The notes under the pieces are model-generated. The model saw nothing but the letters and a program-made list of their open reading frames with translations. It made no database searches and was not told the origin of the DNA. A stretch of DNA of 64,000 nucleotides from Amphiscolops sp. MND2022 (taxonomy: Eukaryota), in the NCBI GenBank assembly GCA_964187785.1, contig OZ076409.1, positions 3,598,001 to 3,662,000 of the forward strand, read 5' to 3'. Positions within the stretch are counted from its first letter, which is position 1. Each line of letters begins with the position of its first letter. A program made the translations under genes and the position numbers. Below are positions 1 to 39,392 of this stretch, piece after piece.

Positions 1-57
1 GTGCAAACTGGAGGCCCCAATTACAGTTACTTGCATCTTCGATCTGTAAATAAGCAT
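1..57 (-). CDS. 5' start of SGNH-like accessory gene, truncated by the window edge
   Basis: Translates MLIYRSKMQVTVIGASSLH, the same as the N-terminus of ORF 20417-21010. Confidence 0.7.
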   Translation of the reverse strand, partial: MLIYRSKMQVTVIGASSLH

Positions 58-614
58 GATGTTTATGGTGAATTTTGTGAAACGGAAAATGAAAGTTATC
101 AATTGCCAACAAAGCACAGTTAAAAAATGTGTCAAAACCCTAAGTAATAACCCTAATTCTAAAATGATTTTGAAAACATTGTAATGAAGTAAAGGGGAAG
201 GTTAGAGCGACATGTAACTTGTTACGCTAAAGTAATCAATTGAACAATTAATTCGAACTTGAACAAATCTGTAAGTAAAGAAGACAAAATTTATTCAAAA
301 ATTGGATAGCAGTTTCCAGCAGTAATTGTTTGGTTAGAAGTTTCATAGGCACGACAAGAATAACAATGCTAAAGCAGGGCTTTTGAGAAATTTCGACAAC
401 AAACATTAGTAACGGAATGCAGGAAAAACAAAAGTTTAATAAAATTGGGTTGAAAAATGACCACAGATTCGATTTCTGTTGAAAATAGCACCGCTGAGTT
501 CATTGACAAAGATATTGAGTGCATTGACAATCAATTATAATATGTACCATAGTTGCGGAGCATACTGTAACAACATAATAGAAAGTAAACTGAGGAATAC
601 CAAGTAGAATAATC

Positions 615-985
615 GGGTTGAGGAACAACCACAGATATAAACTTGATTGAGCAACAAGAGTACAGTTCATCCAAAGTTAACGTATGTGCAACACGGATTT
701 CGACTGGGTTGACGAACAACCACAAAAATAAGAGTTTATGGAATAGGGGTTGAGGAACAACCACAGATATAAACTTGTTGGAACAACAAGAGTACAGTTC
801 ATCCAAGGTTGACTTATGTGCAACACGCATTTTGACTGGGTTGACGAACAACCACAAAAATAATGGAGAAGAGTTTATGGGATAGGGGTTGAAGTACAAC
901 CAATGATATCTAAACTGTTCATTGCGACAAATTACAACATTAATTACCGTGTACTACAAAACTGAAGGGGTTGATGAACAACCAC
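615..985. repeat. Cluster of six GGGTTG-N5-CAACC hairpin motifs, partly within a ~132-bp tandem duplication
   Basis: Motifs start at 615, 706, 747, 838, 886 and 968. Segment 615-746 is repeated at 747-885. Confidence 0.9.
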
Positions 986-1142
986 ATTGTTCAAGTAAAC
1001 AACACGGCGAAACAGTTGAAGACATTGACTAACGACCTCTTTTGCAATGGGGTGTGTGAACATTCACTACAGAAAAATTATTTGAAGCATTGAAAGTTTG
1101 GTTTTGTTATCAGTGGGGCAAATGAAACCAAGGAACGCAGCT

Positions 1143-2103
1143 CTAAAGTAACTGTGAAATTAGAGATTCGCAGTGTAATGCAGGTTCAATTGCAGTAACA
1201 TTATACAAATCCATCAGCACGGAACATCCAGAAAGGTAATCAAGAGCAGTGGGATTGGAAGATTGGTTTTGTAGTCTCATTGCTACTTGCCAATGTCTCT
1301 CAAATTGAGCGTGAACATTAGAGTTGAACATGTTCAGAAGAACTGGAACCGACAGCAACTGACAAAGCAGCAAAGAGACAGTTTCCATCGCCAGGTGCAA
1401 CTGAAGTGATAGGCAGCGAGCGACCTAAAAAGAAACCATGCAAAGGTTTGGTGTCACACAAATACCCACTGAAACTGACACCAAACCTAGAACACTTGCG
1501 TTGTACCTGTGAAGAAGTAGGAGGAGTGACCACATCGTTATGGGAAGAACAATAAAGACTAAATTGGCCACATCCATCATTCAGAACCTCGGTACTTGAA
1601 GTAATTGGTAACGGATCAGTAACAGCAGGGACATTGTTGATTGGATTTGGTTTATCCGAAGAATCAATGTCAAGAGGAACATTCAATGTACTCTGAGATG
1701 TTTCAACGGAAACCATTAAGTTTTGATGTGTAGGCAGAGAGCACAAACAATCGTTTCGAGGAGCAAACTTTCCACATCGGAGGCATCGGTTTTGAAGCTT
1801 CGGGCGTTTTTGCTTGCGGGGACCTGGATTGCTTTCTAGGCCACTTCTTAGTAACAAAATAATCACCATGTGCCTGGTGAATACTCTGATCTTCATGATG
1901 GATTCAGTAGTCATCATTTGAGATCTACTATGTTCGACTACATTCTGCCCGGCTTTTGATTGTTGTTCCACAAACATTATTGTAGTAATAAGTGAACTTC
2001 TTAGCTTCTGAATCTTTGAATTGCCTGGATCGAAACAAAACCATCCGATGATAAGAAAAGTAGGCTCCAAAACTTTATTACCAATCCCATTTTCTGAAAG
2101 CAT
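1143..2103 (-). pseudogene. Internally deleted RepHel paralogue (2A-like peptide, start of OTU, extreme C-terminal tail)
   Basis: ORF 1318-2103 has LLRSGLESNPGP and APGDGNCLFAAL. Overlapping frame 1143-1400 ends HAQFERHWQ...DYLSGCSVLMDLY...CESLISQLL, matching the RepHel C-terminus HAQFEADWQ...DYLSECHVLMDLY...CDSLISQL. Confidence 0.8.
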
Positions 2104-3009
2104 ACAACAGTTAAGACCATTGATAACGCGGTGACAAAACGTGACATAAAGAATGTTTCCACGGAATAATTACAACAACCATATTCTCCCCAAGGAACCT
2201 AACATCATGGGAAGATTCAGTACGTGGAGTGTCAAATATGAAACACATTCAATCAACAAAATGTTTATTGGAAGAAGTTTCTATCGTTTACAAATTATGG
2301 TTGACAAACAACCACAATTCAATCCTGCACAGTTATCCCAAAATAATTACCAAAAAACAATAATGGGGTAAGGTAGCAATTAGATATCAACATTGTTCTG
2401 CTGTCAGAAATCAGGTCAGCATTAGATAACATTGTACAAACCAATAATAGCACCATTGAAAGTAAAACTTCAACTTATAATTTGACAGTGAATTAAATTA
2501 GTGACTTTTTTAATCTATAACTGTTACAAACAGTCGTGAACAGTGTAAGTTCGTAAAAACGGTTGCAGAACAAACCTTAGGCAGGGTAGTTGAATATACT
2601 GAACATTAGTTCAGTGTAAAATTAATCAAAGAGCGGATAAAATATAATTCAAAAAACCATTTCTCATTATTCTGTAAGCCAATAACAAACTAAGTAGAGC
2701 TCTGAAATCCACTTTTGCTGTAGGAGTAGGTTAAATAATGAAAACACTATGGGGAAAATCAAAATTTTGAAGCAGGTTATGATTTCACAGCTAACTTGGT
2801 ATAGATGTAGAGGTAAATGGAAAATTAAAAAAAACACGTTACAAAAAAGTATTTAATCATGTGTTAATATGAAATTTTTGTAACAATTCCCATTTACGAC
2901 CATAGAAAGAATTGAAATGATATAAAGCGTTGTCTTTCTAAGATTAGCACTTTGTATAATGCGAATATCAATTATACGAGTGTTGAAATCGGAACTCAGT
3001 GAAAGGAAA

Positions 3010-3481
3010 GAAAATGAACGAGGATCAAAGAATCGACAAATTGAATGGTTGCCAATTTCATATGAAATGGGTATGTCATTCAACTGCAGAATATCACGGT
3101 AATAACGCGTTACAAAGGCTTCAGTGTTATGTCTGCCGTGTCCACCGAAACTTCGTGAAGAATGAGATTCAAATCAAACACTGAGTCGGCTCGCGGCAAA
3201 TAGAAGACTACTACCACGTTCAAGGATACTAACCGTCTCAATTCCTTTTCCAGCAGTGTCGGATGCAGAGGTGGCACTGACTTACTGGCGTGTTGAGAAA
3301 GGCTAATAGATATTACATCGTGCCATAGGATAAACCGTTCTGTTCGCCGAAATCTCCGTAGGACAACGTGAATCCCTGGCTCGGCTATGACACTGGATCC
3401 CTACATTTTGGAATTAGAATTTGAATGAAGCATTGCATGGTGCAAGCTTGAGGCACCTATCACAACAACAATAGGCAACAT
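3010..3481 (-). pseudogene. SGNH-like accessory gene copy with in-frame stops
   Basis: Manual translation from ATG 3481 gives MLPIVVVIGASSLHHAM...KM*GSSVIAEPG...FILWHDVISISLSQH...LNVVVVFYLPRADSVF, collinear with ORF 20417-21010. The 3' limit is approximate. Confidence 0.75.
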
Positions 3482-3744
3482 GTTTAAACTGAAACGTGAT
3501 ACCAAACGTGACACATAAACAAACTGAACGTGTGATTGTTCTTTAATTATAATACCACAAATTGAATTGCATGTCATCCAAATGAAGGCAAAGGAAAAGA
3601 AACTATTGACATTAGGACATGGAATGATGAAAACAAGTTATGAAAGAATGTGTTAATTGATGAGCTATGTCAAAGCCAGCTGGGACATTAAACAAATCAA
3701 AAAGTTAAATAACAAAAGTTTATACAGTTATAGCTAAAAATGTA

Positions 3745-4272
3745 TGCGGGTGATTACGCAACAAAGCTCGTTCGTAGTGGACGAACGATACGGCAAAGTT
3801 TTTACACAAGATTATTCTTTCTCAGAGCATGTAGTGCAGCTAGGAAACCGGGTTGATGGACAACCACGACAAATAGGATTTGAGGAAGAATTCATTTCAG
3901 CGGGTTGACGAACAACCACAATGACATTAAAAGAAATCCAAAAGTTGTTTAACAAAGTTTTCTTTGGTTGCAGCTAGGAAGTTTATGCAAGTAATGACGA
4001 AACAAGGTCCGTTCGTAGTGGATGAACGATGCAGCATAAGTAGGAACAACAGATTATTCTTTGTCAGACCATGTAGTGCAGCTAGGAAACCGGGTTGGTG
4101 GACAACCACGGCAGAAAGGATGTGAGGAAGACGTCATATTCTGGGGTTGAGGAACAACCACAATGGCATATGTGACGCAATGTAAAATTCAATGTGTAGT
4201 AACTTGGTGTAAATAACGGTAGATATTTTGGATTGAAGTACAACCACGTCTAATGAGTTGACGAACAACTAC
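3745..4272. repeat. ~240-bp tandem duplication and hairpin-motif cluster just downstream of RepHel 1
   Basis: 3745-3925 resembles 3985-4165. Motifs start at 3850, 3902, 4092, 4144, 4230 and 4255. Confidence 0.8.
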
Positions 4273-4338
4273 ATAGCACAAAGAGAAAATTTCTGCCCCG
4301 GGACTGAAGCACAAACAAAAATTGCACAGGGGTACGTT

Positions 4339-7300
4339 TCAGAGCTGCGAAATTAAGGAGTCGCAGTTCAAACCTGCCTCCACTCCATTAACTTTATAAA
4401 GATCCATCAGAACATGACACTCGGAGAGATAGTCAACGGCAGAAACCACTGTTGATGTGAGATGTCGCGCTTGCATTGATCGTTGCCAGTCAGCTTCAAA
4501 CTGGGCGTGAGTCTTGAGTGATAAATCAGTGAACCCATAAACATAAGCAGCTAAAGCCCAGGGGCGTCTCTCAATTGGTCGAGTGAAGTGACCACCTGTG
4601 CCGGCGTTGTGTTGCGACAAACGTTTGCGCAGGTTCTTACAGGAGCCAATATAAAACAAATCGCGGTGGGGAACGCTGATAAGAAGATAACAGAAACCTA
4701 TGGAAGCTGTTGGGACATCGAAATGTTTCAGAGGGAAAGGATGGAATTGTTGGCATTTAGCAATACGGCCAGAACCATGTGAGTAAATGTCAAGGAGTGC
4801 TTCGATGTACCACAGGAGATGATTTTCTTTTTGGGAAAGTTCTTTTATTGCGTGTAAAGTTTCATTTCTATTGCCAACGAAAGTGACATTTGACAAGTCA
4901 GTAACTCGACTTAGAACTACATAAAGTTGTTCTTTAGCCCAAAGTGCAAATTTCTTACCACCGACAATTTGTGTGGCCAAAGAAGGAACTGTATCCCCCA
5001 TAATTTTGTGGACGGTAGAGGCAACGTACATTTTAACGGGTAACTGAATTCTGCGACAAACTAACCCACTGTTCACTCTGTGGACGACACCGACTTGTCT
5101 CCGAAGGACAACAGAACGCCAACGCTGTATGTCATGGTTTGTAAATGACAACGACCTGAAACCAACGGGTGCAATTCGGACAGTAATTGTCTGCGAGGAC
5201 TCGTCAAAAGCATCCACAACACAAAGCTGACCTTGGAATAGTTTAAAAGTAGGGAGATTACAAGTGAGTCGCAAAACACATGCCACATGAATAAATAACG
5301 AGCGCGGTTGCGGGCAGTTGTTGCTTAGAAACCGTGTCACAGCTTCATTTGCTCTCATCCAGTTCTGAGTACCGCTGTTTGACATTTCGTCGTAGCAATC
5401 AAAAACAGCACACTGAATAGTTGGGTCTCTTCGCACCAAATCAATTCTTTGCTCAATAGCTTCTTTCTCAGCAGTTCGAGTTGCGAAAACGCGAAGAACG
5501 TGCAGGGAAACGTCGGACCACTTGGGGAGGAAATTACAGTAAGTGTTAACAATTTGGACTATTTGGTTACATTTCTCAAGCGATATGGGATACTCAGACA
5601 AAAGATTCAGTAAAATTTTGCCGTACAAATTCTGCATTCGCACATATTCTTTCAAAAGATGAACTTCAAAAGTGGCCAGGACCGTGTTGCTCATGAGCAA
5701 AAGCATACCACCTGGTGGAGGTAATTGACGGAAGTCACCGGTGGAAATTACCAATTTGCCTCCGAATGGAATTGAAGACCCCGCAACTTGCTGCATGACG
5801 CAGTCCATTGCTGCCCAGATTTCAGCGGACACCATAGAAACTTCTTCTACAAATATGATGTCCAAACCTTTCAAAACGAAAAACTTAACTGGGTCTCTTG
5901 CCAAACGACTCAAAGCATGTGAAACCAAATGAGAAACAGAGGCATTATCGGATACTGGGAACGGGAATAAGGCATTTATATGCCGCCCACCTAAAATTGA
6001 AGACCGCTCTGCTGCCAAACTTGTTATTATGCAAGAAAACCCTTTTGTGATACCATAGACCACGCAATGAATCATGACATGACTTTTACCGGTACCAGGG
6101 GGTCCAAGTATAAATTGATGTTTTATGAAACATGTTGCAGATGTGCGATATAGCTCCATTGAGTTGCACAAAGTGTCCAATACGCTTTGTTGATGAACCA
6201 AAGAATCCAAATTTTGGTTTTGACCGGCGATTATTACAGGAACCCATGGAAAAGGCGTCTGGAGGGTGGCGTTAAGCAAATCCGAAGATGTTGGCAGTCC
6301 GTGGATACCTTGGTTTAGAACAGCTGTGACGATGCTTTTTTTCATTAACTGAAGTTCCTCGTCTACGTCTTTACATCGCTGGTCAACGACGCTCTCTTCG
6401 AGAACCCGGGGGACAGCGCACGTGTAGAACAACGAATTATGCTGAGTTGCTCCAGAAAGAGAACTGTGGGCAACACAAAGGAAACGATCCAACAATGACG
6501 ACGAACCGGGATAAAAAATTAGCTGTTCCAAAAGGAAACGACGTGTAATTTGCAAAACCTCCAAATTGTCACAACCGGATGTGCTTTGACACAAACCAGC
6601 AATGTGGAACGCGTTAATGATAGAGGAGTTACTGAATAAATCTAACTCTGTAGTGTAGGATCCCAACGTCAAAAGAATATGTATGACAAAGTTGGAGGAA
6701 TCTCGTGGAAGGACGTTGGAAAAAACTACTTGACGACAAGTAGCGAATTTTTTTGGAGAAATAAAGTTATTTCGATTTGGACTGCGCAAACATGCCAGAG
6801 CTTCCACACAGTTCAGAAGGAAGGAGTTGTCAGTGGAAGTGTAATTGTTGCAGAATGAAATGAATGAATCGAAGTAGAAAGAGTTCAAAACAACAATATA
6901 ACCAAGTCCGTCTATCCACAAAGAGTCGTCCGCTGCGGCCTTCAGACAGGTTTCCGTTGCCTGCTTTTCTGTCCGTTTGAAACGTAAAAACCATGTGAAA
7001 TATTGCTCAATATTTCTTACGAATCGTAATTCGGGGGGTCTAACACCAAAAATAGTAACTTTGTCAGGTGTGAGACAACTTTTTTGCGTGTCAATGATAA
7101 GAAACGTTTGGTTGTTGGTGAACTGCCGATGAGAAGGAAGAGACAAGTTGCGACGAATGGCGTTTTGTCTAGCATACAGAGGAGCTTGATTGTGGCGAGA
7201 TACCCGACGCTTCTCGAGAATGACACCAGAGCGTTTTTCTTTAGGAGCAGTGACTACGTGAACGAAGGAAATATTAGACACGACGTATGGGAAACGAAGA

Positions 7301-10300
7301 GACCACCACGCAGATTCTGTGAGGCTGATAACTCTGGCAGCGAAAGTGTTTCTTTTACGTTTGGGTGCGAACGCTGGACTACTCAATTGAACACCTGCTA
7401 TCTTTTGATTGGACATGGGGTCAATATCGAAGGTAAAATTATTTTGTTGACTTGTACTGCGAATGGAAACATGACTTCGTTCCTCTACTCCCGCAGCGTA
7501 TTTGGCAAGATACCGAGCACTCATATATGTATCACAAATTTGAAGATTTGTACTGGATTGCACTAAAGCAAAAATGCGGGCGTTGGTTGGAGAATAATGT
7601 GAGTTCCGATCCGTGGGATAATGATGCTTGCCACCACACAAGACAGGGTCCAAAACTGTTTTGCAACTATCGGGGTCAAAGTGAGCAAGTCCAAGTTTTT
7701 GAAGAAGTACCACAGTTTCTGGAGAAAGGTTCTTCTCAATTGGTTTGTAGGAGAAATCATTAGCCGGAGGGTACTTAGGAACTCTACAAACGGACTCTGA
7801 AAGCTTCGCAGTTTTTTTATGACAGCGGAATTTGGCTTTCTTACAACTGTGAGTTTGAAACTTGTGAAACAAATCGACCAAATGGTTGGTTTGTGTGGCA
7901 GACAGTTTATTGTTTCCAACAGATGCAATCAAAGATCCCAAAAAAGTTGATGGGGAACAACAAACACGAGAGCGGACATTGTTTGAGAAGACGTCTTCAC
8001 CTGTCCATATCAATGCATGAATATGTGGGAAAGCACTGGTCTGATCTTGGAACTCATATCGGAACCAGAGTTTTAAAACGTGACCGAGAGGTTTTTCGGG
8101 GGAAGTTTCGATGTACTTCATTACCAAGGCTGAGCTACGTTGCCAAGCTCGTAACATGGTTATCATTTCGGCCTGAATAGCAGACAACCTCGTTTCTTTT
8201 GACGAAGTAGCTGGAGGATATTTGGCATCAATAGCAGCGAAAATTTTACGTAAACCAGGATGAGTGGATTGACTGCATGTGTAGGTGAAAAAATATGTTG
8301 CGGGCTGTTCACGGAGAGCCGCACTCAACTCATTAACATGTTTTCGAGAGTCACTCTGATCGAAAGATATTGAACTGTCGCAAACTTTCTGAGACTGCTG
8401 ATAATCTTTGGCAGCTGCACCCCATCCTCTGTTCAAAATCACTCGGCTGTCGTGTTCTCTGAGTTGGAGGTTGAACAGGGTGTCGAATGCAAATTGAATG
8501 TAACGAGGATCGGAAGATGTTAAAAGCGAAGAATCCATCAAACGAGTTTTTAAATGATTTTCCAAAGTGGCGTATCCCATGTACTTGTTGCTTTGAGGGT
8601 TGTTAAATAGACTGGATGGTAAAGAGCCAGGATAACTTCCATCAGCGTTCTGTTTCCAAAAAATTGATGGAAACATCATTGCCTCAGGTTGGTATAATGG
8701 AACTGACATCGGGGATGATGTAGCGGTAACGTTTTCTAACATTCGCTTAAATCTGGCCGCCACATACAAAGGTGATCCGTGGCTGCGTTTCAAAAGGCCA
8801 CATTGACCATTTAACAAAACATGGAGCGGAAGTTTGAAGTGAACGTCCATGTGAACATGTTCAGAAGCTACATTGGGGGAGACGCCAATGCGGGTATGAG
8901 TAGGGATTGAGATAGAAGAAGCAGCTGATGATTCAACAGTGAACATAGCATTGGTAACAAGATTAGTGGAACTTGAGGTGGATGGAGCGTCATCGAAAGA
9001 TGATGAAAATTGAGAATCAGGGAGACAGCAAGAAGTGGAGTTGTTAGAAGCGTTATGAACAACGGAAGCATTGTCCTTTGCCTCCTGGGCACTGTCCTTT
9101 ACGGTACTGTGTGTAGGCTGCACAATGTTAACCTCAAGAGACTGGGATGTGTGTTGTTTGCATACAGACGCAGAGCATGTAGCGACAGGACAGCGAATGA
9201 AAGACGCTCGACCACAGCGACACCTGAAACCACTCTTCTGAAAGTCACGAGTTAAAGGAATGTGATGAACTTCACACAAAAATCGACCTTGACCGGCCAT
9301 GGACATCATGAAGTCTTTTTTCAAGTCTGTTGCGGAAACTTCACATATTCGGTAATAAACAGCCATTCGCCAATAACCGTTAGTCAAGTGGTCAACTGCT
9401 ATATCCGGAGACATAGTAACACGTTTCGGACAACCGGAAGTTTGATCGTAAAGCCAAAATTTGTCAAACGGCTCTCCATGTCGAACGAGTGCTCTATTGT
9501 TTTGACCAGGGGAACCAGAGAAAACGTTTCGCAGCTCGAAACGACTGTTATCAGCGACAACAGAAAGGGGCAAAGAATGTTTACTACGTAAGGAATTACT
9601 ACCATTGTAAGAAAAAATTACAATGTCGATGCCTGCAAGTGACCGTTTGAACCGAGAAGCAACATCAGGACGGTTAGTGACAACAGAAAATTCAATATGT
9701 GGAGAACAATCGGAGACGTAAAGACCGACATCGTTGTGAATTGAATCGGACAAATCATGCAAATGCTGTGGAAGATGAAACTGTGGATATGGACAATTTC
9801 TTAATTTCGGGAAAATTAAAGTATCAAGCATCCCCAAAATATGTAGAAGGGTTTCATCCGGCTTATCCACTGACGAAATAAGAGCACACAAATGCGGAGA
9901 AATCACAAAGAGCGATTGAATTAAAAACAATTTTAAATTTTTGAAAGACACTAATCTCGGAGGATTTGCTCCATGGTGGTTTGCAGGATGCGCAAAAGTA
10001 ATGTTTTTGAATTTCTCCAGAAATGCATCTTTTTTCAAAGTGGAAAAAATGCTCAACGTTTTCCTTGTATCCAATAATGAGACACATGTAGAAGATTCTA
10101 GCGAATTTTCTGTTTCTACGACGTCGCAACCTGGTTTCGCCAATATGGCTTCAGCAATTGATTGTTGTAACTCACCGGAGTCGACCAATTGGTGCAATAA
10201 ATACCGAATATCTTGTCGATGATACGCACATTGCGCTTCAGACTGCACTAACAAATCGGAAGTTATGTCCCATTTCCTTTTCGACGTCAATTGAATACTA

Positions 10301-12774: not shown

Positions 12775-13963
12775 CTGTGAAAAATAACGTCATTATCTGA
12801 AAAAAAACGAACTTGTAATAACATAAGAGCACAGTAAAGAACAGCGAACCATAGTCGTAAGGTAAATTAAAATAACAACAAGGTGTTAATGGAAACATTT
12901 GTACGAGTGGATGTAAAAATTGTTTTAAACGGAGTGAAAGGAAAACACGTATTGCTTGATGCATGACTAATAAAAGTTTAAAAACCCATAGTTAATGTCA
13001 TGAACACGGAAAAACTTAAAACAAGGGTCATTGAAAGGGTTGATGAACAACCACTGCAAATGAGACAACGGTGTAGCATAACGTAAATCAAATCGAAGGC
13101 ACTGAACGTACGCGTTAGATGAAAATGAACATTACAGTCAAACACCTCCCTCGAAGCACTGGTTCCTATCGAAGTAGAAAATTGAAATTGTCTTACGTAA
13201 GTATTTGTTTCAACACATAAAACTTGTGAAATAGTTACAAAACAGGGTATAATAAACAAATGGTGGCGGTCTATATCGAACATTACCACATTTTGACACC
13301 GGTGAAACCCCAAATAACGTAATTTTTCATTTCCTGATATAGAAATATTTCAATGTAGCTGAAAAACAGATTTGGGAAAAATTCGCAATTTTTAGAATTT
13401 TGGTAGAACTTTTGTAGAACTTTTTATTTTTTATTTTTTATCCTGAACACGCGATGTTGAAAACACATCGACTGTACTGCTACCGCTCAAGTAAACATCA
13501 TCTCATCCAAAGATCGGAAGTTATGACGCGATGACCGGAGAATTCACATTTTTCCACTGATTAATCTACTTCTATCTCTCAGCCTAGTATTACCAGCCTA
13601 ATGATTTTTGGCATGCGAACAACTGACATCATTTATGCCTCGCATACAAAGTATCAGCCAATTGTATCCACATGCTGCAGATTTCGCAGCGAAAAAGTAC
13701 CGAAACAGGGTGAAAAAACCGATCATTTGCTCATAACTTCCCGCCAAGTAATAGGATCGTGTTTGGTCAGCAGAACATCAGTCATACATCGGCAAGATAA
13801 GTGCACATGCAAAGTTTCATCAAAATCCTACGGTTCAATTCGAAAATCGCTGTTTTTTACCGACTGACCGAGAGGTATATAGTTCGACATGCGAAAGTTG
13901 AGCTCGGCATCGGGACCCTCCCCGGCCTCGCACTAAATAATGTGGGGAGGTTCCCCTGACCAC

Positions 13964-21010: not shown

Positions 21011-21155
21011 TGATGATTATGGTGAATTTTGTGAAAGGGAAAACTAAACTTATCAATTGCCGACAAAGCACACTTGAAAAATTTGTCAAAACTGTAAATA
21101 ATAACCCCAATTTTAAAATTACTTTGAAAACGATATAACGAACTAAAGGGGAAGG

Positions 21156-24900: not shown

Positions 24901-27900
24901 CGCGGATTCAGTTAAGCTGATAACTCTACCTGTGAAAGTGTTTCTTTTACGTTTGCGACTGAATGCAGGACTGCTCAATTCAACACCCGCAATCTTTTGA
25001 TTAGTCATGGGGTCAATATCGAACGAAAATGTATTTTGTTGAGTTGAACTGCGAATGGAAACATGACTTCGTTCCTCGACTCCGGCCGCGTATTTGGCAA
25101 GATACCGAGCACTCATGTATGTATCGCAAATTTGAAGATTTGTGCTGGAGCGAACTAAAGCAAAAATGCGAGCGTTCGTGGGAGAATAATGCGAGTTCTG
25201 ATCAGTTGGATAATGATGCTTGCCACCACACAAAACAGGATCCAATACAGTTTTGCAAATATCGGCGTCAAATTTTGCAAGTCCAAGTCTTTCAAGAAGT
25301 GACAGGGTTTCTGGGGAAAGGTGCTTGTCTATTGGTTTGTAGGAGAAATCATTAGCTGGAGGATACTTAGGAACTCTACAAACTGACTCTGCAAGCTTCG
25401 TGGTTTTTTTATGACAGCGGAATTTGGCTTTTTTACAACTGTGAGATTGAAACTTTTGAAATAAATCAACCAAATGGTTCGTTTCTGTGGAAGACAGTTT
25501 GTTGTTTCCAACGGACGCAATCAAGGATCCTAAGAAAGTTGATGGTGAACAACAAACACGGGACCGGACAACGTTTGAGTTAACGTCTTCACCTGTCCAT
25601 ATCAGAGCATGAATATGCGGGAACGCACTTGTCTGATCTTGGAACTCATAACGGAACCAAAGTTTTGAAATCCGACCCAAAGGTTCTTCGGGGGACGTTT
25701 CGATGTATTTCATAACCAAAGCAGAGCTACGTTGCCAAGCCCGTAACATGACTATCATTTCGGCCTGAATTGCAGACATTCTGTTTTCTTTTGCGGAACC
25801 CGACGGGGGATATTTTTTGTCCAGAGCAGCAAAAATTTTCCGTAAGCCTGGATGAGTGGATTGACTGCAGGTGTACGTAAAAAAATAGGTTGCAGGCTGC
25901 TCACGAAGAGCAGCACTCAATTCATTAACATTTTTTCGAGAGTCACTCTGATCAAAAGATATTGAAGTGTCGCAAACTTTCTGAGACTGCTGATAATCTT
26001 TGGCAGCTGCACCCCATCCTCTGTTCAAAATCACTCGGCTGTCATGTTCTCTGAGTTGGAGGTTGAACAGGGTGTCGAATGCAAATTGAATGTAACGAGG
26101 ATCAGAAGATGTTAAAAGCGAAGAATCCATCAAACGAGTTTTTAAATGATTTTCCAAAGTGGCGTATCCCAAGTACTTGTTGCTTTGAGGGTTGTTAAAT
26201 AGGCTGGATGGTAAAGAGCCAGGATAACTTCCATCAGCGTTCTGTTTCCAAAAAATTGATGGAAACATCATTGCCTCAGGTTGGTATAATGGAACAGACA
26301 TGGGGGACGATGTAGCGGTAACGTTTTCTAACATTCGCTTAAATCTGGCAGCCACGTACAAAGGAGATCCCTGACGGCGTTTCAAAAGGCCACATTGACC
26401 ATTCAACAATATATGGAGCGGGAGTTTAAAATCATCATTCACATGTACATTGTCAGAAGTGACATTGGGGGCGACGCCCACGCGGGTGTGTGTAGGTATT
26501 GAAATAGAGGAAGCAGCCGAAGACTCGACAGTGAACATAGCATTTGTAACAAGATTAGCAGAACTTGAAGTGCTTGGGGCCTCTTCGAAAGATGAAGAAA
26601 CGTGGGAGTCAGCGCGATTGATGGATGTGGAGTCGTTGGAACCGTTATGAAAAACGGAAGCAATATTCGTTTGTTCGTTGTCATTGTCTTTATACCGTGT
26701 AGGCTCCACAATGTTGACCTCACAACACTGGGATGTGTGTTGTTTGCAAACACAAGCGGAGCATGCGGCGTGAGGACAACGAATAAAAGACGTACGACCA
26801 CAGCGACACGTGAAACCACTTTTCTGCAGGTCACGAGTTAAAGGAATGTGATGAATGTCACACAAAAATCTACCTTGACCAGCCATGGACGTCATAAAAT
26901 GTTTTTTTATATCGGCAGCTGACGTCTCACATGTTCGGTAGTAAACAGCCAACCGCCAGTAACCGTTAATGTACTGATCAACAGCTACATCAGGAGACAA
27001 GGGAACACGCTTCGGACTCCCGGAACTTTGATCGTAAAGCCAAAATTTATGAAAGGGATCTCCATGTCGAACGAGTGCTCTGTTGTTTTGACTACGGGAA
27101 TCAGAGAAAACATTTCGCAACTCAAAATGACCACCGTCAACAGCGGTAAGAGAGAGAGGCAGAGTATGTTTACTGCGCAATGAATTCATACCATTGTATG
27201 AAAAAATTACAATATCGATGCCTTCAAGGGTTCCATTGAAGCGACAAGCAATATCAGGACGGTTAGTGACAACGTGAAATTCAATACATGGAGAAGATTT
27301 GGAGATGTAGAGACCAACGTCGTCGTGAATGGAACCGGAAGAAACGTGCAATTGCTCTGGAATATGAAACTGTGGATTTGAAGCATTAGTCCATTTCGGG
27401 AAAATAACAGTATCAAGCATCCCCAAAATTTGAAGGACGGTTTCATCAGGGTTACTCACTGACGAAATTATGTCACACAAAGTCGGCGAAATCACAAAGA
27501 GTGATTGAAGCAACAGCAATTTTGAATTTTTGAAACAGACTAACTTTGGAGGATTTGCTCCATGGTAGTTAGGAGGATGCGCAAAAGTAATGTTTCTGAA
27601 TTTTCCCAAGATTGTGTCATTGTAGGAAGTAGAAAAAGTGCTCAACATTTTTCTTGTATCCACCAAGGAGACTGAGGTGGAAGACTCCAGCAACATGTCA
27701 GACTTAACCAGGTCACAATGAGTTTTAACCAAAATGGCTTGAGCAATGGAATGTTGTAATTCGCCGGAAGCGACTAATTGGTGCAATAAATACTTAACAT
27801 CCTGTCGATGGTACGCACATTGCGCTTCAGATTTCACCAACAAATCGGAAGTGATGTCCCATCGTCTTTTCGAGCTCAATTGAATGCTACTAATACCAGA

Positions 27901-30393: not shown

Positions 30394-31546
30394 TATCTGG
30401 AAAACAACAAAAGTGTAGAAACATAACAGCAGAGTAGAGAATTGGTAACCATAGTCTAAAAGTTTTTCAAAGTAGCGCGTTGTTAAATGAAACTATTGTA
30501 TAACCGGACAAAGCGGGTGTTTCAACCGGAGTGTAATGAAAAAAAGGTTGCTTCAATGACTACAGTAATTTCAAAACAAGCCTAATATAACTTTTCATTA
30601 ACACGGAAACACTTAGAACATCAGTCATCGTATGGGTTGATGAACAACCACTGAAAATGACAGGGACAAACGACATTAAATATACCATCAAAACATTAAA
30701 GGCACTGTAGGTACGCGTTCCATAAAATTAAGCATAACCGTCATACATTCATGGGAATACCGGTCACAGTCGACATATGTTGATAATGTTATACGTATGT
30801 ATTTGTCTTGAAATACTCAATGGAAAGGTATAATAAGCGGGCGGAGGCGGTCAACATCAACTATTAAACCATTTTGACGCCGCTTACATGAAAAGTAACG
30901 GTATTTTTGAAATCTAAATAAACGAATACTTTGAGAACAGGCAAAAAACTGTATTTGAAAAAATTCGAAATTTTTAGAATTTTTGTAGAACTTTTGTAGA
31001 ACTTTTTTGTTTTTTATTTTTTATCCTGACCACGCGATGTCGAAAACACCTCGAATGTTCTGCTACCACTTGAGGAAACACCGTCTGTACAAAAGTTGGG
31101 AAGTTATGACGCGATGACCGGAAAATTCAAAATTTTCGGTTACTTCTTTCACTTCTATCTCTCAGCCTAGTAACACGAGCCTAATGATTTTTGGCATGCA
31201 TACACCTGACATCATTTATGCCTCGCATGCAAAGTTTCAGCCAATTGTACCCACATGCTGCAGATATCGCAGCGAAAAAATAACGAAAAAGGGTGAAAAA
31301 CCCGATCATTTGCTCATAACTTCCCGCCAAGTAATAGGATCATGTTTGACCAGCAGAACATCAGTCATACATCGGCAAAATATTAACACATGCAAAGTTT
31401 CATGAAGTTCTAACGGTTCAATTCCGAAATCGCCGTTTTTTGACAGGTGATCTAGTGGTATATAGTTTGACACGCAATACTTGAGCTCGGCGACGGGACC
31501 CTCCCCGGCCTCGCACTAAAATATGTGGGGAAATACCCCTGACCAC

Positions 31547-32583
31547 CCAGTGGAGGCAAAGGTACAATCACGAGAAAGGCCGTAATAACATTGTAGAGGT
31601 AAGCAATGAGGCGAAACTCACACGATAACGACCATCAATTGTTATGCATTGTACAAAACTTGCTCAAAACGGCTTCCTTTCATCTGCAATCTTTCATCCT
31701 GTAACGCACGCGCGAACCACCACAGGTGATGTACAGGCCATGTTGTTTGTTATCACCGTTCTTCCTCCGAACTGCTTCGCGGTCCTCCGGAGAACGGTGA
31801 TCTTGTTATTTACAATTTAACAAAAATATACTGACACATTCAGTTCCAACATCTGAAGCAACAGTTGAGTTATGTCTCATTTACTTTTTGTGACCTCTGA
31901 AACCCCTTTAATTGTCACCGTAAGTGCAGAATCACTTCTTTTTTGCGTTCAAAAAGTGAAAAAGCATCGAAAATTGAGAAAATTTTTTTTTTCGAAAAAA
32001 TTCGCAATTTTTAGAATTTTGGTAGAACTTTTGTAGAACTTTTTATTTTTTTATTTTTTATCCTGAACACGCGATGCTGAAAACACATCGACTGTACTGC
32101 TACCGCTCAAGTAAACATCATCTCATATAAAGTTCGGAAGTTATGACGCGATGACCGGAGAATTCACAATTTTCCACTACTTTTTCCCCTTCTATCTCTC
32201 AGCCTAGTATCACCAGCCTAATGATTTTTGGCATGCGAACACCTGACATCATTTATGCCTCGCATACAAAGTATCAGCCAATTGTATCCACATGCTGCAG
32301 ATATCGCAGCGAAAAAGTACCGAAACAGGGTGAAAAAACCGATCATTTGCTCATAACTTCCCGCCAAGTAATAGGATCGTGTTTGGTCAGCAGAACATCA
32401 GTCATACATCGGCAAGATAAGTGCACATGCAAAGTTTCATCAAAATCCTACGGTTCAATTCGAAAATCGCTGTTTTTTACCGACTGACCGAGAGGTATAT
32501 AGTTCGACATGCGAAAGTTGAGCTCGGCATCGGGACCCTCCCCGGCCTCGCAATAAATAATGTGGGGAGGTTCCCCTGACCAC
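31547..32583 (-). mobile_element. Non-autonomous unit C (1037 bp, type 1)
   Basis: Left part resembles unit A; ends at GACCAC|CTAG; stem-loop at 31752-31801. Confidence 0.85.
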
Positions 32584-34725
32584 CTAGCGATGGAGCGATT
32601 TAGAGCACTGCTAGGTAGAGACCTAAACGAAACGGTTGAAAGTTTGTTACTGAAGTATGACACAAACAAATATCCCACGCGAAATCTTTTGTGTATGTTG
32701 TTCACAACTCAACAATAAAAATATCATCACACTGCCAAAATAGGCCAATGGTGACCTCCGTCACGTCACCAAAGAGGTATGTTGGGTTTTGCGTTCAAAA
32801 CAAGCACCGTTGTTCCCGCGAGATGCTGCGCAACTCACGGAACACCGGTGACAATGAATTTTGCTAGCCGATTTGCAACAACTTAATTAACACTTTCAGG
32901 CACTTTTTGGCATACCTTTTGCCCAAGGGATATTTTGCTCCTTACAGATAGTAAACCCCAACCCCCTAAGCAGTTTCAAGTTCGCTGCAGCTGCTTCGTG
33001 TGCTGCATCAAATGCAACTCAACGTGATGCAATGATTTATCATCCGATCAGTCATAATGCCAAAACTCAAAAAAATCAACTTTTTTCAAATGTCTCCTAC
33101 AGGTGAACGAATTACATTTTTGGAACCCCCATTGGATGCTGACAATTTTTGACCTTATGGTCCGAGACCGTGCGGACCGTTCCGGCTGCTCAAATCATCA
33201 AATTGATCAAAGTGATTCAGTCAAAAAAATTAATTTGGCACTTTTCGGCACTTTGGTTGCCCCCTGGGGGAAATTTTTTTGGACCGTTCGAAAGACCGTT
33301 GACCGTTGATGATTTTCATAAATGTGCACTTTGCCGCTACGGGCTTTCCTTCATGGTGAAAATGGCCTTTGATTCGGTCATTGATTAATCAAAGATGAAA
33401 AAAGATGAAAAAAAAAACCAAAAAACGCAAAAAAACCCTACAAAATGAATTTTCCTGGAAAAACGTCAGCAGAAAAAAGTTCTTAAATTTTTGTCATGAA
33501 GCCACATGCAAAGTTTCAGACAAATCCTACGGGTGAATTTCGAGATCGGTTAAAATACTTCGCAATCCTGAAGGTAGGAATTGATAGAATGTGCTCGGCT
33601 CTCGGGACCCTCCCCGGCCTCGCAATATTTTCTGATGGGCATCCCCCTTGACCACCTAGCGATGGAGCGATTTAGAGCACTGCTAGTAAAAGGCCTAAAC
33701 TTAACAGCGCAACCTTTGCTAATGGAGTATGAAAAAGAAATATTGAGGCTAGCAATTTTTTGTAAGTTATTCTGGGATTGAACGATAAATATCATCACCC
33801 TGACGAGTGAATGTCTATGGTGACTGCCGTCAACTTAACTCAAGGGATTTTGTGGTTTTTTGCTTTCTAAGCAAGCACCGTTGCTCCTGCGAGATGCTGC
33901 GCAACTCTCGGAACACCGGTGACAATAAATTTTGCTGATCGATTTGCAATAACCAAATCATCACTTTGAGGCATTTTTTGGCACAACTTATGCCCTAGGG
34001 CTATTTTGCTCTTTACAGAGGGTAAACCCTAGCCCCATAATCAGTTTCAAGTTTGCTGCAGCTGCTTCCTGTGCTGCATCATATCCAACTGAAAGTGATA
34101 CAAGTATTTCTCATCCAATCACTCATAATGACATATACCCCAAAAAATCAACTTTTTTCTGATGTCTCCTACAGGTGAACGAATTACATTTTTGGAACCC
34201 CCATTGGATGTTGACAATTTTTGACCTTATTGTCCGAGACCGTGCGGACCGTTCCGGCTGCTCAAATCATCAATTTGATCAAAGTGATTCAGTCAAAAAA
34301 ATAATTTTGGCACTTTTCGGCACTTTGGTTTCCCCCGGGGGGAAAATTTTTTGGACCGTTCGAAAGACCGTTGACCGTTGATGATTTTCATAAAAGTGCA
34401 CTTTGCCACTACGGGCTTTCCTTCATGGTGAAAATGGCCTTTGATTCGGTCATTGATTAATCAAAGATGAAAAAAGATGAAAAAAACCAAAAAAACGCAA
34501 AAAAACCCTACAAAATGAATTTTCCTGGAAAAACGTCAGCAGAAAAAAAATCTTAAATTTTTGAGATAAAGCCACATGCAAAGTTTCAGACAAATCCTAC
34601 GGGTGAATTTCGAGATCGGTTAAAATACTTCGCAATCCTGAAGGTAGGAATTGATAGAATGTGCTCGGCTCTCGGGACCCTCCCCGGCCTCGCAATATTT
34701 TCTGATGGGCATCCCCCTTGACCAC
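32584..34725 (-). mobile_element. Non-autonomous units D (32584-33655) and E (33656-34725), type 3
   Basis: Both begin ctagcgatggagcgatttagagcactgctag and end gggaccctccccggcctcgc...gaccac. Their interior is strongly diverged from the other types. Stem-loops at 32805-32850 and 33876-33921. Confidence 0.85.
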
Positions 34726-36797
34726 CCAGTGGAGGCAAGGAAACTAATTACCAGAGTGGGCGGGCGGCTTCTGTTGAATTAAATTTTAAAATACGCTACC
34801 AGTACTGTTCACTTTAGGTAACATCCATGGAAACGTTTTTCGTCTGTTCAACTGATGAAAAACTCTGTTTTTCATCAGTTTAACGAATGATTACATATCT
34901 CTCATTCCAACCACCCGGGTACTTCGTTATTTCTATCCGTTGTTCCTGCGAACTGCTTCGCATTTCTCAGGAACAACGGAGAAGTTGTTTCTTGAACTTT
35001 TTTCCGGGACAAAACAATGGCGGGACTTCTAACAAAAGAACAATTAGTTCTGTAAAGTGGCCACTCATCGACGAAGAGGTATGTGAAAATCCTTCAAGTA
35101 GTCATCGTAAGTGCAGCGTTACGTCATTTTCATGCTAAGAATGTGAAAAACCGTCGAAAAACGAAAAAATCTTTTTTTTGAAAAATTCGTCAATTTTAGA
35201 ATTTTTGTAGAACTTTTGAAGAACTTTTTCATTTTTTATTTTTTATCCTGACCACGTGATGATGAAAGTACCTCCAAAGTACTGCTACCGCTAAAGGAAA
35301 CACCATCAATACAAAAGTTCGGAAGTTATGACGGAATGACCGGATTTTTCACAATTTTCGGTTTATATTTCAGCTTCTATCTCCCAGCCTAGTATCACCA
35401 GCCTAATGGTTTTTGACATGCAAACATATTTCTTCATTTATGCCTCGCATGCAAAGTTTCAGCCAATTGTATCCACAGGCTGGTTGTACCGAGGCGTAAA
35501 CATGCCGAAAATAGGTGAAAAAACCGATCATTTGCTCATAACTTCCGACACAGTGTTGCAACCATGTTTTGCCAGGAGAAAAAAGTTCTTATAAGTTTGA
35601 GATCTACCGACACACAAAGTTTCATTCAAATCGTATGGCTCAATTCCAAAATCGCTGTTTTTCTGGACCCCTCACTCTAGATAGATATCTGACAGCATGG
35701 CTCGGACTCGGGGCCCCTCCCCCACCTCGCAAATATTCTGGTAGAGTATACTCGTGACCACCCAGTGGAGGCAAGGAAACTAATTACCAGAGTGGGCGGG
35801 CGGCTTCTGTCAAATTATATTTTAAAATACGCTACCAGTACTGTTCACTTTAAGTAACATCCATGGAAACGTTTTTCGTCTGTTCAACTGATGAAAAACT
35901 CTGTTTTTCATCAGTTTAATGAATGATTACATATGTCTCATTCCAACCACCCGGGTACTTCGTTATTTCTATCCGTTGTTCCTGCGAACTGCTTCGCATT
36001 TCTCAGGAACAACGGAGAAGTTGTTTCTTGAACTTTTTTCCGGGACAAAACAATGGCGGAACTTCTAACAAAAGAACAATTAGTTCTGTAAAGTGGCCAC
36101 TCATCGACGAAAAGGTATGTGAAAATCCTTCAAGTAGTCATCGTAAGTGCAGGGTTACGTCATTTTCATGCTCAGAACGTGAAAAAGCGTCGAAAACCGA
36201 AAAAATCTTTTTTTTTGAAAAATTCGTCAATTTTAGAATTTTTGTAGAACTTTTGAAGAACTTTTTTATTTTTTATTTTTCATCCTGACCACGTGATGAT
36301 GAAAGTACCTCCAAAGTACTGCTACCGCTAAAGGAAACACCATCAATACAAAAGTTCGGAAGTTATGACGGAATGACCGGACTTTTCACAATTTTCGGTT
36401 TATATTTCAGCTTCTATCTCCCAGCCTAGTATCACCAGCCTAATGGTTTTTGACATGCAAACATTTTCCTTCATTTATGCCTCGCATGCAAAGTTTCAGC
36501 CAATTGTATCCACAGGCTGGTTGTACCGAGGCGTAAACATGCCGATAATAGGTGAAAAAACCGATCATTTGCCCATAACTTCCGACACAGTGTTGCAACC
36601 ATGTTTTGCCAGGGGAAAAAAGTTCTTATAATTTTGAGATCTACCTACACACAAAATTTCATTCAAATCGTATGGCTCAATTCCAAAATCGCTGTTTTTC
36701 TGGACCCCTCACTCTAGATAGATATCTGACAGGAGGCTCGGACTCGGGGCCCCTCCCCCACCTCGCAAATATTCTGGTAGAGTATACTCGTGACCAC
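34726..36797 (-). mobile_element. Non-autonomous units F (34726-35761) and G (35762-36797), type 4
   Basis: Near-identical 1036-bp pair with the same junctions; stem-loops at 34936-34980 and 35972-36016. Confidence 0.85.
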
Positions 36798-37832
36798 CCA
36801 GTGGAGGCAAAGGTACAATCACGAGAAAGGCCGTAATGACATTGTAGAGGTAAGCAATGAGGCAAAAGTCACAGGATAACAACCATCAATTGTTTGCTTT
36901 GTACAAAAGTTGCTCAAAAGTGTTCTTTCATCAGCAATAATTCATCCTATACCGCACGCGCGAACCACCACAGGTGATGTACAGGCCATGGTTGTTTGTT
37001 ATCACCGTTCTTCCTCCGAACTGCTTCGCGGTCCTCCGGAGAACGGTGATGTTGTTATTTACAATTCAACAAAAATATACTGACAATTTCAGTTCCAACA
37101 ACTGAAAGAACAGTTCAGTTTTGTCTGATTTACTTTTTGTGACCTCTGAAACCCCTTTAGTTGTCACCGTAAGTGCAGAGTCACTTCTTTTTTGCGTTCA
37201 AAATGTGAAAAAGCATCGAAAAACGAGAAAATCTTTTTTTTTTTGAAAAATTCGCAATTTTTAGAATTTTTGTAGAACTTTTGTAGAACTTTTTTATTTT
37301 TTATTTTTTATCCTGGCCAGGTGATGTTGAAAACACATCGCCTGCACTGCTACCGCTCAAGTAAACACCATCTCATCCAAAGATCGGAAGTTATGACGCG
37401 ATGACCGGAAAATTCACAATTTTCCACTTCTTTTTCTACTTCTATCTCTCAGCCTAGTATCACCAGCCTAATGATTTTTGGCATGCACACACCTGACATC
37501 ATTTATGCCTCGCATGCAAAGTATCAGCCAATTGTATCCACATGCTGCAGATAGCGCAGCGAAAAAGTACCGAAAATGGGTGAAAAACCCGATCATTTGC
37601 TCATAACTTCCCGCCAAGTAATAGGATCATGTTTGACCAGCAGAACATCATTCTTACATCGGCAAGATAAGTACACATGCAAAGTTTAAAGAAGTTTTAT
37701 CGGTTCAATTCGAAAATCGCCGTTTTTTGACTGGTGTGCTAAAGGATATAGTACGACACGCGAAAATTAAGCTCGGCATCGGGACCCTCCCCGGCCTCGC
37801 ACTAAATAATGTGGGGAACTACCCCGGACCAC
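36798..37832 (-). mobile_element. Non-autonomous unit H (1035 bp, type 1)
   Basis: Left part nearly identical to unit A; right end resembles units B and I; stem-loop at 37001-37050. Confidence 0.85.
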
Positions 37833-38881
37833 CCAGTGGTGGCAAAGGTACCTTTTGCAAGCACTGGCCGTTATCCATTCTGTGAAAGTAGAGTTGCGGT
37901 AAAACGAAACCTACATTTGTACAACACTCATTTTAAAAACATGTTTTTACATACATTTTTTTTCACTATAACTGATTTCATATGTAACTGCAGTCACTTT
38001 TGCAGAAAAAGGGACTACAAGCGTTCGCTGCGGGTCACCTCTGTTCCTGCGTGCAGCTCCGCATCACTCGGAACACAGGTGACACTGTGTTTTTAGAGTC
38101 CAAATTGCGATACGTTTATATTTGTTTCCCAAAAACTGAAACCTGATTACTTCGTGATCCCGGGTAACAAACGAATGATATGATTAATACGATGCAAAAT
38201 AAAGCTGTTTTGAACACAGCGACGGTAAAAACAATGTCATTATTACATTCCTGAGAAAAAATTACGCTGGATTTGACAAAAATTTTTTTTTTGAAAAAAT
38301 TCTAAAATTTTAGAATTTTTGTAGAACTTTTGTAGAACTTTTTTATTTTTTATTTTTTATCCTGGCCACGTGATGTTGAAAACACATCGACTGCACTGCT
38401 ACCGCTCAATTAAACACCATCTCATACAAAGTTCGGAAGTTATGACGCGATGACCGGAGAATTCACAATTTTCCACTACTATTTCTACTTCTATCTCCCA
38501 GCCTAGTATCACCAGCCTAATGATTTTTGACATGCAAACACCTAACATCATTTATGCCTCGCATGCAAAGTATCAGCCAATTGTATCCACATGCTGCACA
38601 TATCGCAGCGAAAAAGTACCGAAATGGGGTGAAAAACCCGATCATTTGCTCATAACTTCCCGCCAAGTAATAGGATCATGTTTGACCAGCAGAACATCAG
38701 TCATACATCGGCAAGATAAGTACACATGCAAAGTTTAAAGAAGTTTTATCGGTTCAATTCGAAAATCGCCGTTTTTTGACTGGTATGCTAAAGGATATAG
38801 TACGACACGCGAAAATTAAGCTCGGCATCGGGACCCTCCCCGGCCTCGCACTAAATAATGTGGGGAACTACCCCGGACCAC
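37833..38881 (-). mobile_element. Non-autonomous unit I (1049 bp, type 5), last array member
   Basis: Begins with the hairpin ccagtggtggcaaaggtaccttttgcaagcactgg; stem-loop at 38034-38083; ends GACCAC|CCAGctataag. Confidence 0.85.
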
Positions 38882-39392
38882 CCAGCTATAAGAAATCAAA
38901 AAAATTGCCCATAAAGGACCATTTTATGGTGTACAAATTGACTGTCGAAAATTTCGTTCGAATCGTATGGACAGTTTTTGCGAAAATCAAAAAAAGTCCA
39001 AAATGGTTTTCTCTTGGCCGTTTTTGGGTTGATTTTGTCTATGTTTCTCACATCCCAGCCATACGAATTTGATGAAATTGCATACAAAGGACCATAATAT
39101 GGTGTAGAATGACTGTACTAAATTTCGTTGGAATCGTATGGTCAGATTTCGAGAAAAACGGAAAAAGTCGAGAAATGGCTGTTTTTTGGCCTTTTCGAGG
39201 TAAATTTGACTGTTTCTCACATTCTGGTCATACGATTTTAATGCTTTTGCGCATGCAGGGGCCCCTTTGGGTGGAGTAGGACTGTGAAAATTTTATGAAA
39301 ATCCTATGGACAGTTTTTAAGAATTCTGACATTTTTATTTCGGGAACGACACGAAGGTATAAGAAGTAGTCGAATGTTTTTTCCGACTCCAA
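38882..39392. repeat. Different interspersed repeat flanking the array, with internal subrepeats
   Basis: Three related blocks (ggaccat..tggtgta..gactgt..aatttcgtt.gaatcgtatgg) near 38915, 39090 and 39260; terminal inverted repeat agtcg...cgact at 39368-39388. Confidence 0.5.

Follow-up and report, generated by a model that had tools for sequence, protein, structure and literature searches.

A divergent Helitron-like family in Amphiscolops sp. that probably inserts at CTRG and builds mixed arrays at the ends of its own relatives

In a 64,000-nucleotide stretch of the genome of Amphiscolops sp. MND2022 (contig C1:3598001-3662000, hereafter the window; the assembly is 1.07 Gb), Helitron-like elements of different lengths and families lie head to tail, each joined to the next where the tetranucleotide CTRG meets a 5' terminus such as GTGG. 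We think it probable that they represent a divergent Helitron-like family that inserts at CTRG, chiefly at the ends of its own relatives, and thereby builds mixed arrays. This reading is carried by a junction that recurs across the genome, by uninterrupted copies of the host repeat that borders the array and by a young unit that stands behind many unrelated upstream sequences.

The array consists of abutting units

A motif search of the window found GACCACCYAG 11 times on the plus strand, at each of the boundaries that an initial annotation of this DNA had placed after 13963, 14998, 16045, 31546, 32583, 33655, 34725, 35761, 36797, 37832 and 38881. The mean over shuffled sequences was 0.13, and none of 100 shuffles had 11. 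Cutting the window at these junctions yielded 11 abutting units, in agreement with the claim that no host DNA lies between them. All 11 are on the minus strand and are read 5' to 3' there, starting GTGGTC[A/C]GGGG... and terminating in ...CTGG or ...CTAG. The choice between CCAG and CTAG on the plus strand follows the right-hand unit, as had been noticed: CTAG is found only at 32583 and 33655, where the right-hand unit begins CTAGCGATGGAGCG. The variable base is therefore part of that unit's minus-strand 3' end. The units are listed below, types A to D being assigned by the junction cut and self-comparison.

1..13963, minus strand: autonomous element 1, cut by the window; the whole is 18,814 bp and extends 4,850 bp past the left edge
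13964..14998, minus strand: unit type A, 1,035 bp
14999..16045, minus strand: unit type B, 1,047 bp
16046..31546, minus strand: autonomous element 2, 15,501 bp, complete
31547..32583, minus strand: unit type A, 1,037 bp
32584..33655, minus strand: unit type C, 3' end CTAG, 1,072 bp
33656..34725, minus strand: unit type C, 3' end CTAG, 1,070 bp
34726..35761, minus strand: unit type D, 1,036 bp
35762..36797, minus strand: unit type D, 1,036 bp
36798..37832, minus strand: unit type A, 1,035 bp
37833..38881, minus strand: unit type E, 1,049 bp, at the 5' edge of the array; youngest family

The nine short units (1,035-1,072 bp) hold no long frames and have only their termini in common with the long units; on sequence grounds they are non-autonomous derivatives. 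Most 1-kb units have a ~600-bp 5' module in common. Neighbours had been described as mostly of different subfamilies, and typing by the 3' module bears this out: two of the ten adjacent pairs in the window are of the same type, C|C with 87.7% identity and D|D with 95.9%. Self-comparison of the window also matched a multi-unit block, 13362-14999, to 30944-32584 at about 88% identity.

The array proved larger than initially described. It covers at least 118 kb and 43 units, between a point 79,173 bp outside the left edge of the window and position 38881, and the tiled 118 kb contain no host DNA; in the 80 kb read left of the window, neither host DNA nor the far (3') end of the array was found. 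Going left, the 18,814-bp element is followed by further 1-kb units and then by a second group, ~30 units measuring 2.0, 4.76, 2.8 and 1.28 kb. Unit sizes over the whole array are discrete (1.04-1.07, 1.28, 2.0, 2.8, 4.76, 15.5 and 18.8 kb). The 4.76-kb unit has one 5' block and no long frame, and is therefore one element rather than several. At second-group junctions, ...GCGGTAGCRGCTAG is followed by GTGGGCGGGG, GTGCGGGGG, GTGGGGGGGATA or GTGGTCGTTAGC. Two of the initial claims had to be narrowed in this light. The CTRG|GTGGTC junction, called invariant, is present at 11 of 11 boundaries in the window, and just left of it the tetranucleotide is CTGT. Similarly, GTGGTC is the 5' end of one group, and other families of the array start with GTGGGCGGGG, GTGCGGGGG or GTGGGGGGGATA.

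Long repeat arrays mis-assemble easily, so that the array itself could be an artefact of assembly. We regard this as very improbable. Its units are diverged (80-97%) and follow one another in irregular order, which collapse or expansion errors do not yield, and the junction occurs 175 times on many contigs as well as in an unrelated metagenome contig.

The junction recurs across the genome and in another organism

Tabulating the bases upstream of genomic 5' ends, a check proposed in the initial annotation, gave CTRG at 175 of the 176 genome copies of GTGGTCMGGGGN6CCCAC. The single exception genome-wide is the CTGT case, the mutated 3' end of element 1. In general, the 5' terminus consists of GTG[G/C] and a short G/C hairpin, and the 3' terminus of a hairpin and CTRG. 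Across 44 distinct 30-mers the 5' ends are GTGG or GTGC, and most have a G/C hairpin of 4-5 bp at about nucleotides 7-21, a weak signal (median z -1.2, with 17 of 44 below -1.5). Clear 3' hairpins are present in many families, such as CCGCACTCTGGAGTGCGG then TAGCGGCTAG, while some are degenerate, as in type A; a 3' CCWCCAC complementary to the 5' GTGG is found in the 1-kb families only. The 3' tetranucleotide at 118 junctions was CTGG in 72 cases, CTAG in 45 and CTGT in one, a set that was selected for an upstream CTRG and so gives no independent statistic.

Searched from the other side, the 3' end TTTGCCWCCACTGG is followed by GTG[GC] in 159 copies genome-wide, by G and a non-T base in two and by a non-G base in 18, the two and the 18 all lying outside clusters. 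Six of the 18 were examined as candidate solitary 3' ends and rejected: they belong to an unrelated repeat or match by chance, and none resembles the array. Among the first 100 of the 176 copies of the 5' motif, the places listed form a few clusters, each on one strand, on C1 at 3.5-3.6, 37.9-38.1 and 72.7-75.8 Mb, on C2 at 102.7-103.9 Mb, on C3 at 2.8-3.9 Mb, and on C7, C8 and C38.

Relatives of the autonomous protein are encoded in 13 metagenome contigs; just one of these, L081, extends as far as a terminus. With a protein of 34% identity, it reads ...AGCCTCCAGCGCTAG|GTGGTCCGGGAC / GTGGTCCGGGACATTTTCC...GGGGAGGGACC, the same junction. Across the junction, the last 579 bp of this contig align with the Amphiscolops genome over just 63-113 bp, at 77-86%. 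It is therefore different DNA with conserved termini and abutment. Junction-like matches in three further contigs (L088-L090) lie inside an open reading frame (ORF) and were set aside as chance.

Uninterrupted copies of the flanking repeat define the target

The right-hand edge of the array lies in a host repeat, with these features:

38882..38885, minus strand: host tetranucleotide CTGG (CCAG on the plus strand), immediately upstream of the first 5' end of the array
38882..39243, minus strand: host repeat flank, two ~172-bp sub-repeats (38902-39074 and 39075-39243), 77% identical
39052..39058, minus strand: empty copy of the target in the adjacent sub-repeat, ATC|CCAG on the plus strand, that is CTGG|GAT, 173 bp from the array edge

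The repeat (38882-39481) has more than 3,600 candidate copies in the genome. The empty site, which the initial annotation had suggested might be recovered, was read from 16 distinct uninterrupted copies, as CTGG|GAT in 12 and CTGA|GAT in four (...TTCTTATAACTGG|GATTCGAGCGAG or ...TTCGTATGGCTGG|GATGTGAGAAAC). This confirmed that the right flank supplies CTGG. Because CTGG is also present in uninterrupted copies of the repeat, it is host sequence, and the array starts right after it.

A pattern search for second-group 3' ends without a following GT gave five places, of which two were examined. At the first (L077, on C11) the sequence is ...GCGGTAGCTGCTAG|GATGTGAGAAACATAGCC: the 3' end ...GCTAG runs directly into host GATGTGAG with no GTGG between them, and the repeat that flanks the window array resumes precisely at the base after the tetranucleotide. 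The second (L076, C5:22666608-22666907, minus strand) reads ...GCGGTAGCTGCTAG (GCTAG) then GAGGGTATATA / GAGGGTATATATAGC, and its flank is either host sequence or the decayed 5' end of another family (compare GTGGGGGGGATATATC). The pattern CTAGGATKYGAGMRA had 198 scattered matches in the genome, none of which falls in the 1.05-5.8 Mb part of C1; the majority probably represent variants of the host repeat that have CTAG at the target position and are thus uninformative about the far edge.

No target-site duplication was seen. The empty site is CTGG|GAT, and the occupied sites are CTGG|GTGG... at the 5' edge and ...CTAG|GATG at the 3' edge, the two edges coming from different loci. At the level of these alignments, empty and occupied sites show integration between CTRG and G without target duplication; with G on each side of the break, the cut could be placed one base further in either direction. 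The initial placement of the break between CTRG and GTGG agrees with the co-variation of the R base with the upstream unit and with the L077 edge, which has no GTGG. The joining of a 5' end to a CTRG target in the manner of IS91, also suggested at the outset, is in keeping with host CTGG at the array edge and CTRG at the 3' end.

The boundary might instead have been misplaced, with the element starting at the TC of GTGGTC and CTRGGTGG representing a 3' end or filler. TC at positions 5-6 of GTGGTC does fit the canonical 5' end (the HLE1 rule, PMC11417382). We give this placement almost no credence. Array families that start with GTGGGCGGGG, GTGCGGGGG or GTGGGGGGGATA have no TC there, L077 passes from ...GCTAG straight into GATGTGAG without GTGG, and the empty sites read CTGG|GAT, so that CTGG is host. 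The initial annotation had itself raised the possibility that CTGGGTGG is part of the element and that the true start is the downstream TC; this fails because L077 lacks GTGG and because several families have no TC after GTGG.

Units appear to arrive at the ends of resident elements

An indication of where new copies land came from unit E, which is present 19 times in the examined loci, on five contigs, with a median pairwise identity of 97.8% (range 96.9-100). These copies stand behind 11 distinct upstream sequences, namely the host repeat, A (8 of 19), C, E, F, G and five other CTAG-ending families. In all 19, CTRG closes the upstream sequence and a further 5' end follows E. In the A|E pairs, the A copies are mostly 90-93% identical, compared with ~97.5% for the E copies; E therefore arrived later and separately. 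At one locus on C3 (L007), E lies between two F copies of 99.0% identity (F|E|F), 1 kb beyond an F|F junction. The proposal that resident 3' ends serve as landing sites is thus supported both by E behind 11 upstream sequences and by its presence once inside F|F. Downstream flanks were of little use for such identities because all downstream neighbours have a common 5' module. Within the set of 118 junctions, pre-selected for an upstream CTRG, 117 were element-to-element.

Tandem arrays of Helitrons have been described before, and rolling-circle concatemers are the usual explanation (PMC5148889, PMC11934779, PMC12001565). Applied here, this would mean that one or a few insertions were amplified, as concatemers or by satellite-like expansion, and shuffled by unequal crossing-over and gene conversion without any targeting of ends. 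Local duplicates are indeed present (D|D at 95.9%, C|C at 87.7%, F1/F2 at 99.0% and a 3.1-kb repeat on C38), and the ~600-bp 5' module common to most 1-kb units would permit recombination. We nevertheless consider such an origin unlikely. It predicts runs of identical units, whereas only 2 of 10 adjacent pairs in the window are of the same type. Copies of E are 97-100% identical over their full length, including the first bases, behind 11 unrelated upstream sequences on five contigs, and crossing-over in the common homology cannot put an intact E behind unrelated 3' ends. Finally, units of 1, 2, 4.8 and 15-19 kb are alike only at their termini and still have the one junction.

A second alternative is local hopping, for instance into permissive chromatin, combined with read-through or end bypass of multi-unit blocks, the ends themselves not being targets. 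End bypass has been documented for Helitrons and IS91 (PMC4778049, PMC13181058), A-type units precede E in 8 of 19 cases, and multi-unit blocks recur at about 88% identity. This too seems to us improbable: host DNA should then be interspersed, and none is found in 118 kb; in most A|E pairs the two units moved separately, as E is ~97.5% and A 90-93% identical; and the host CTGG, together with two edges at one position of a repeat, points to site choice.

Several observations weigh against insertion at resident ends as a full account. Duplication also acts, as in the three-unit 3.1-kb repeat on C38 (E 99.9% identical, upstream flanks 99.3%) and in the local near-duplicates D|D (95.9%) and F1/F2 (99.0%), and one junction carries a ~31-bp deletion. 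In a genome of 1 Gb, CTRG before a G occurs far too often to account for the near-exclusive location of copies in arrays. Rep must therefore recognise more than the tetranucleotide, an extra target specificity that we only infer. Three edges were seen: a 5' edge within the window, a clear 3' edge at L077 and an unclear one at L076; the two flanks of one insertion were never seen together, and the far end lies beyond the stretch that was read. Moreover, L077 and the window array may go back to a single founding event. Unless they do, the shared position of their edges in one host repeat likewise suggests that more than the tetranucleotide is recognised.

The autonomous elements encode a Rep-helicase-nuclease fusion

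The two long units, 82% identical over 8.9 kb in self-comparison, each have one intact long frame. Element 2 is laid out as a ~600-bp 5' module, the long ORF and a 5.9-kb 3' region.

4339..12789, minus strand: P0002, open frame of 2,816 aa with OTU, Rep, PIF1 helicase and GIY-YIG
21931..30492, minus strand: P0001, open frame of 2,853 aa
30142..30165, minus strand: 2A-like motif GIESNPGP, residues 110-117 of P0001 (motif)
29302..29592, minus strand: OTU-like cysteine protease region (GDGNCLF; weak in Pfam, E 0.05)
25075..25950, minus strand: Rep, Helitron_like_N, with HUH H1626/H1628 and tyrosines Y1797/Y1801 (Pfam and motif)
22462..23787, minus strand: PIF1-type helicase, Walker A GPPGTGKS (PF05970, E 4.3e-12)
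22042..22290, minus strand: GIY-YIG nuclease domain (Pfam E 2e-9; SLX1 is the nearest solved structure, E 1.6e-9)

The Helitron-like identity proposed at the outset is upheld by these frames, which carry HUH, a YxxxY tyrosine pair and a PIF1-type helicase. In P0001 the HUH motif is PHIHALIW and the two tyrosines are those of YLAKY; Helitron_like_N scored 29.0 bits against a cut-off of 28.9 in Pfam, and the helicase lies C-terminal to Rep in the same protein. The OTU match is clearer in relatives (E 5.7e-6 in P0015). Comparison with solved structures also returned PIF1 helicases, and Helraiser through its helicase only (E 1.3e-5). In Pfam scans with E up to 5, neither DUF6570 nor an AP endonuclease was matched.

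Between P0001 and P0002, Ka/Ks is 0.22 over the whole protein and 0.11-0.13 within the Rep, helicase and GIY-YIG domains, so that the entire fusion, including the nuclease, is under purifying selection. A word-based search found 29 proteins of the same architecture, of 1,569-4,993 aa and nearly all unnamed; the sole named relative is an uncharacterised Styela clava protein (26% identity). An alignment of 14 of these proteins, with identities down to 29%, showed no change at the HUH histidines, the two tyrosines, the Walker A motif or the residues of GIY-YIG.

Proposed mechanism

In the mechanism that we favour, the HUH Rep would nick single-stranded DNA at CTRG^G. This one short site would recur in four places, the donor 5' end (as upstream CTRG|GTGG), the 3' end of the element itself, the circle junction and the target, a one-site rolling-circle logic that follows models for IS91 and Helraiser (PMC13181058, PMC4778049). 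Once integrated, an element would add a CTRG^G at its 3' end while one stays at its 5' end. Elements arriving later, whether autonomous or not, could then land exactly at resident ends and give a mixed head-to-tail array without host DNA. The additional recognition might come from a hairpin or end of the resident element, or Rep might use its own nick at a resident origin as the target. Local duplication and read-through would contribute further copies. From its likeness to SLX1, our guess is that the GIY-YIG domain may carry out second-strand or structure-specific cutting.

Comparison with known systems

Canonical Helitrons run TC...CTRR and insert at A|T, whereas in Helitron2/Helentron elements the terminal repeats are asymmetric, the insertion site is T|T and an AP endonuclease may be present (PMC11417382, PMC3627910). 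The elements described here resemble HLE1 (e.g. Helraiser) in that their RepHel protein combines HUH and two tyrosines with a PIF1-like helicase, the target is not duplicated, a 3' hairpin lies ~10-20 nt ahead of a CTRR-type end (here CTAG/CTGG) and non-autonomous copies share termini only. They differ from HLE1 in the 5' end (GTGG and a hairpin rather than TC), in insertion at CTRG|G instead of A|T, in the fused GIY-YIG and in being found almost only in mixed head-to-tail arrays. As in Helitron2/Helentron, there is a 3' hairpin and, with a weak signal, one near the 5' end; the protein has an OTU-like region ahead of Rep and a nuclease fused behind the helicase, and the hosts are animals. Unlike that group, they have an SLX1-like GIY-YIG in place of the AP endonuclease, no T|T insertion, no clearly present asymmetric terminal inverted repeats and no match to DUF6570, a reported marker that separates the two known Helitron groups (PMC11417382). 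The only mention of GIY-YIG found in the literature searched is its capture in one Sphagnum HLE2 family (PMC11417382).

The likeness to IS91, IS801 and IS1294 is one of working, not of membership. It includes rolling-circle HUH transposition, no target duplication, read-through past the terminator and, in IS91, a target tetranucleotide beside the initiating end with a related one at the terminating end (PMC13181058). IS91 is bacterial, with an IS91-type TnpA and CTTG/GTTC, in contrast to the CTRG and the ~2,800-aa RepHel with PIF1 and GIY-YIG found here; the IS91 family has no fused helicase or nuclease and is not reported to form large mixed arrays at its own ends. Tandem Helitron arrays, in plant centromeres, bat, Drosophila, Fusarium/Metarhizium and Hydractinia subtelomeres, are likewise head-to-tail and in some cases subtelomeric. 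In those accounts one element or an internal minisatellite is repeated and concatemers are held responsible, whereas here many families of differing length have one conserved junction and a target defined by empty sites. In the literature searched, which did not extend to Repbase and subscription journals, we found no description of a CTRG target, GTGG 5' ends or a Rep-helicase-GIY-YIG clade, nor of mixed arrays joined at a defined target tetranucleotide.

We tentatively raise the possibility that these elements form a third major lineage of eukaryotic rolling-circle transposons (Rep-PIF1-SLX1-like GIY-YIG), in which one CTRG^G site would serve as origin, terminator, circle junction and target, the nick at a resident origin being the landing site. 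If this were so, the arrays would be self-made safe harbours and a eukaryotic counterpart of target use by IS91, and a general explanation of Helitron tandem arrays other than concatemers would be at hand. The target of Helitrons is usually given as A|T or T|T, and here a tetranucleotide target is read from empty sites. How Helitron arrays arise, and how eukaryotic Helitrons are linked to IS91, become testable questions. A conserved and mostly unnamed OTU-Rep-PIF1-GIY-YIG architecture is now defined across several data sets, and a transposon confined to its own arrays offers a natural model of low-damage genome colonisation.

Further features

Two smaller frames lie in the autonomous elements:

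1318..2169, minus strand: P0004, 283-aa frame, a fragment like the N-terminus of a distant relative (29% identity, E 8e-19)
17216..18235, minus strand: P0003, 339-aa open frame in the 3' region of element 2

The resemblance of P0004 covers the 2A-like motif, the zinc finger and the start of the OTU region. It is held in ~3.4 kb of element 1 (within 205-4228) that are absent from element 2, and this stretch is either a capture or a nested remnant. P0003 had no Pfam family and no usable Atlas match. The motif GIESNPGP/GLESNPGP, which we take to be 2A-like, is found ~110 residues into the long frames, just ahead of a CxxC motif and the OTU region, and is kept in three diverged copies (P0001, P0002 and P0004). 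The 3' regions of the autonomous elements contain internal tandem repeats, at 615-863 (132 bp) and 16929-17063 (68 bp), which have the word GGGTTGA[CG]GAACAACCACA in common. Rfam and tRNA scans of the window gave no matches, and a ribozyme or retrozyme-type tandem repeat is not indicated.

Each 5' module carries ~3 copies of an 11-bp unit, TTTGTAGAACT, at 13389-13424, 14422-14458, 15471-15506 and seven more places. The junction with the ~31-bp deletion is at about position 1978 of L061, 8,022 bp left of the window; the deletion takes ~21 nt off the end of a 5' terminus and ~10 nt off the beginning of the adjacent 3' terminus and fuses two 1-kb units into one 2,112-bp stretch. Several clusters lie less than 4 Mb from contig ends (C2 102.7-103.9 of 103.9 Mb, C3 2.8-3.9 Mb and C1 3.5-3.6 Mb), which recalls the subtelomeric Helitron-derived arrays of cnidarians (PMC11934779). 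Right of the array, in host DNA, positions 49442-54609 of the window are a tandem repeat with a 575-bp period, in ~9 copies of 98-99% identity.

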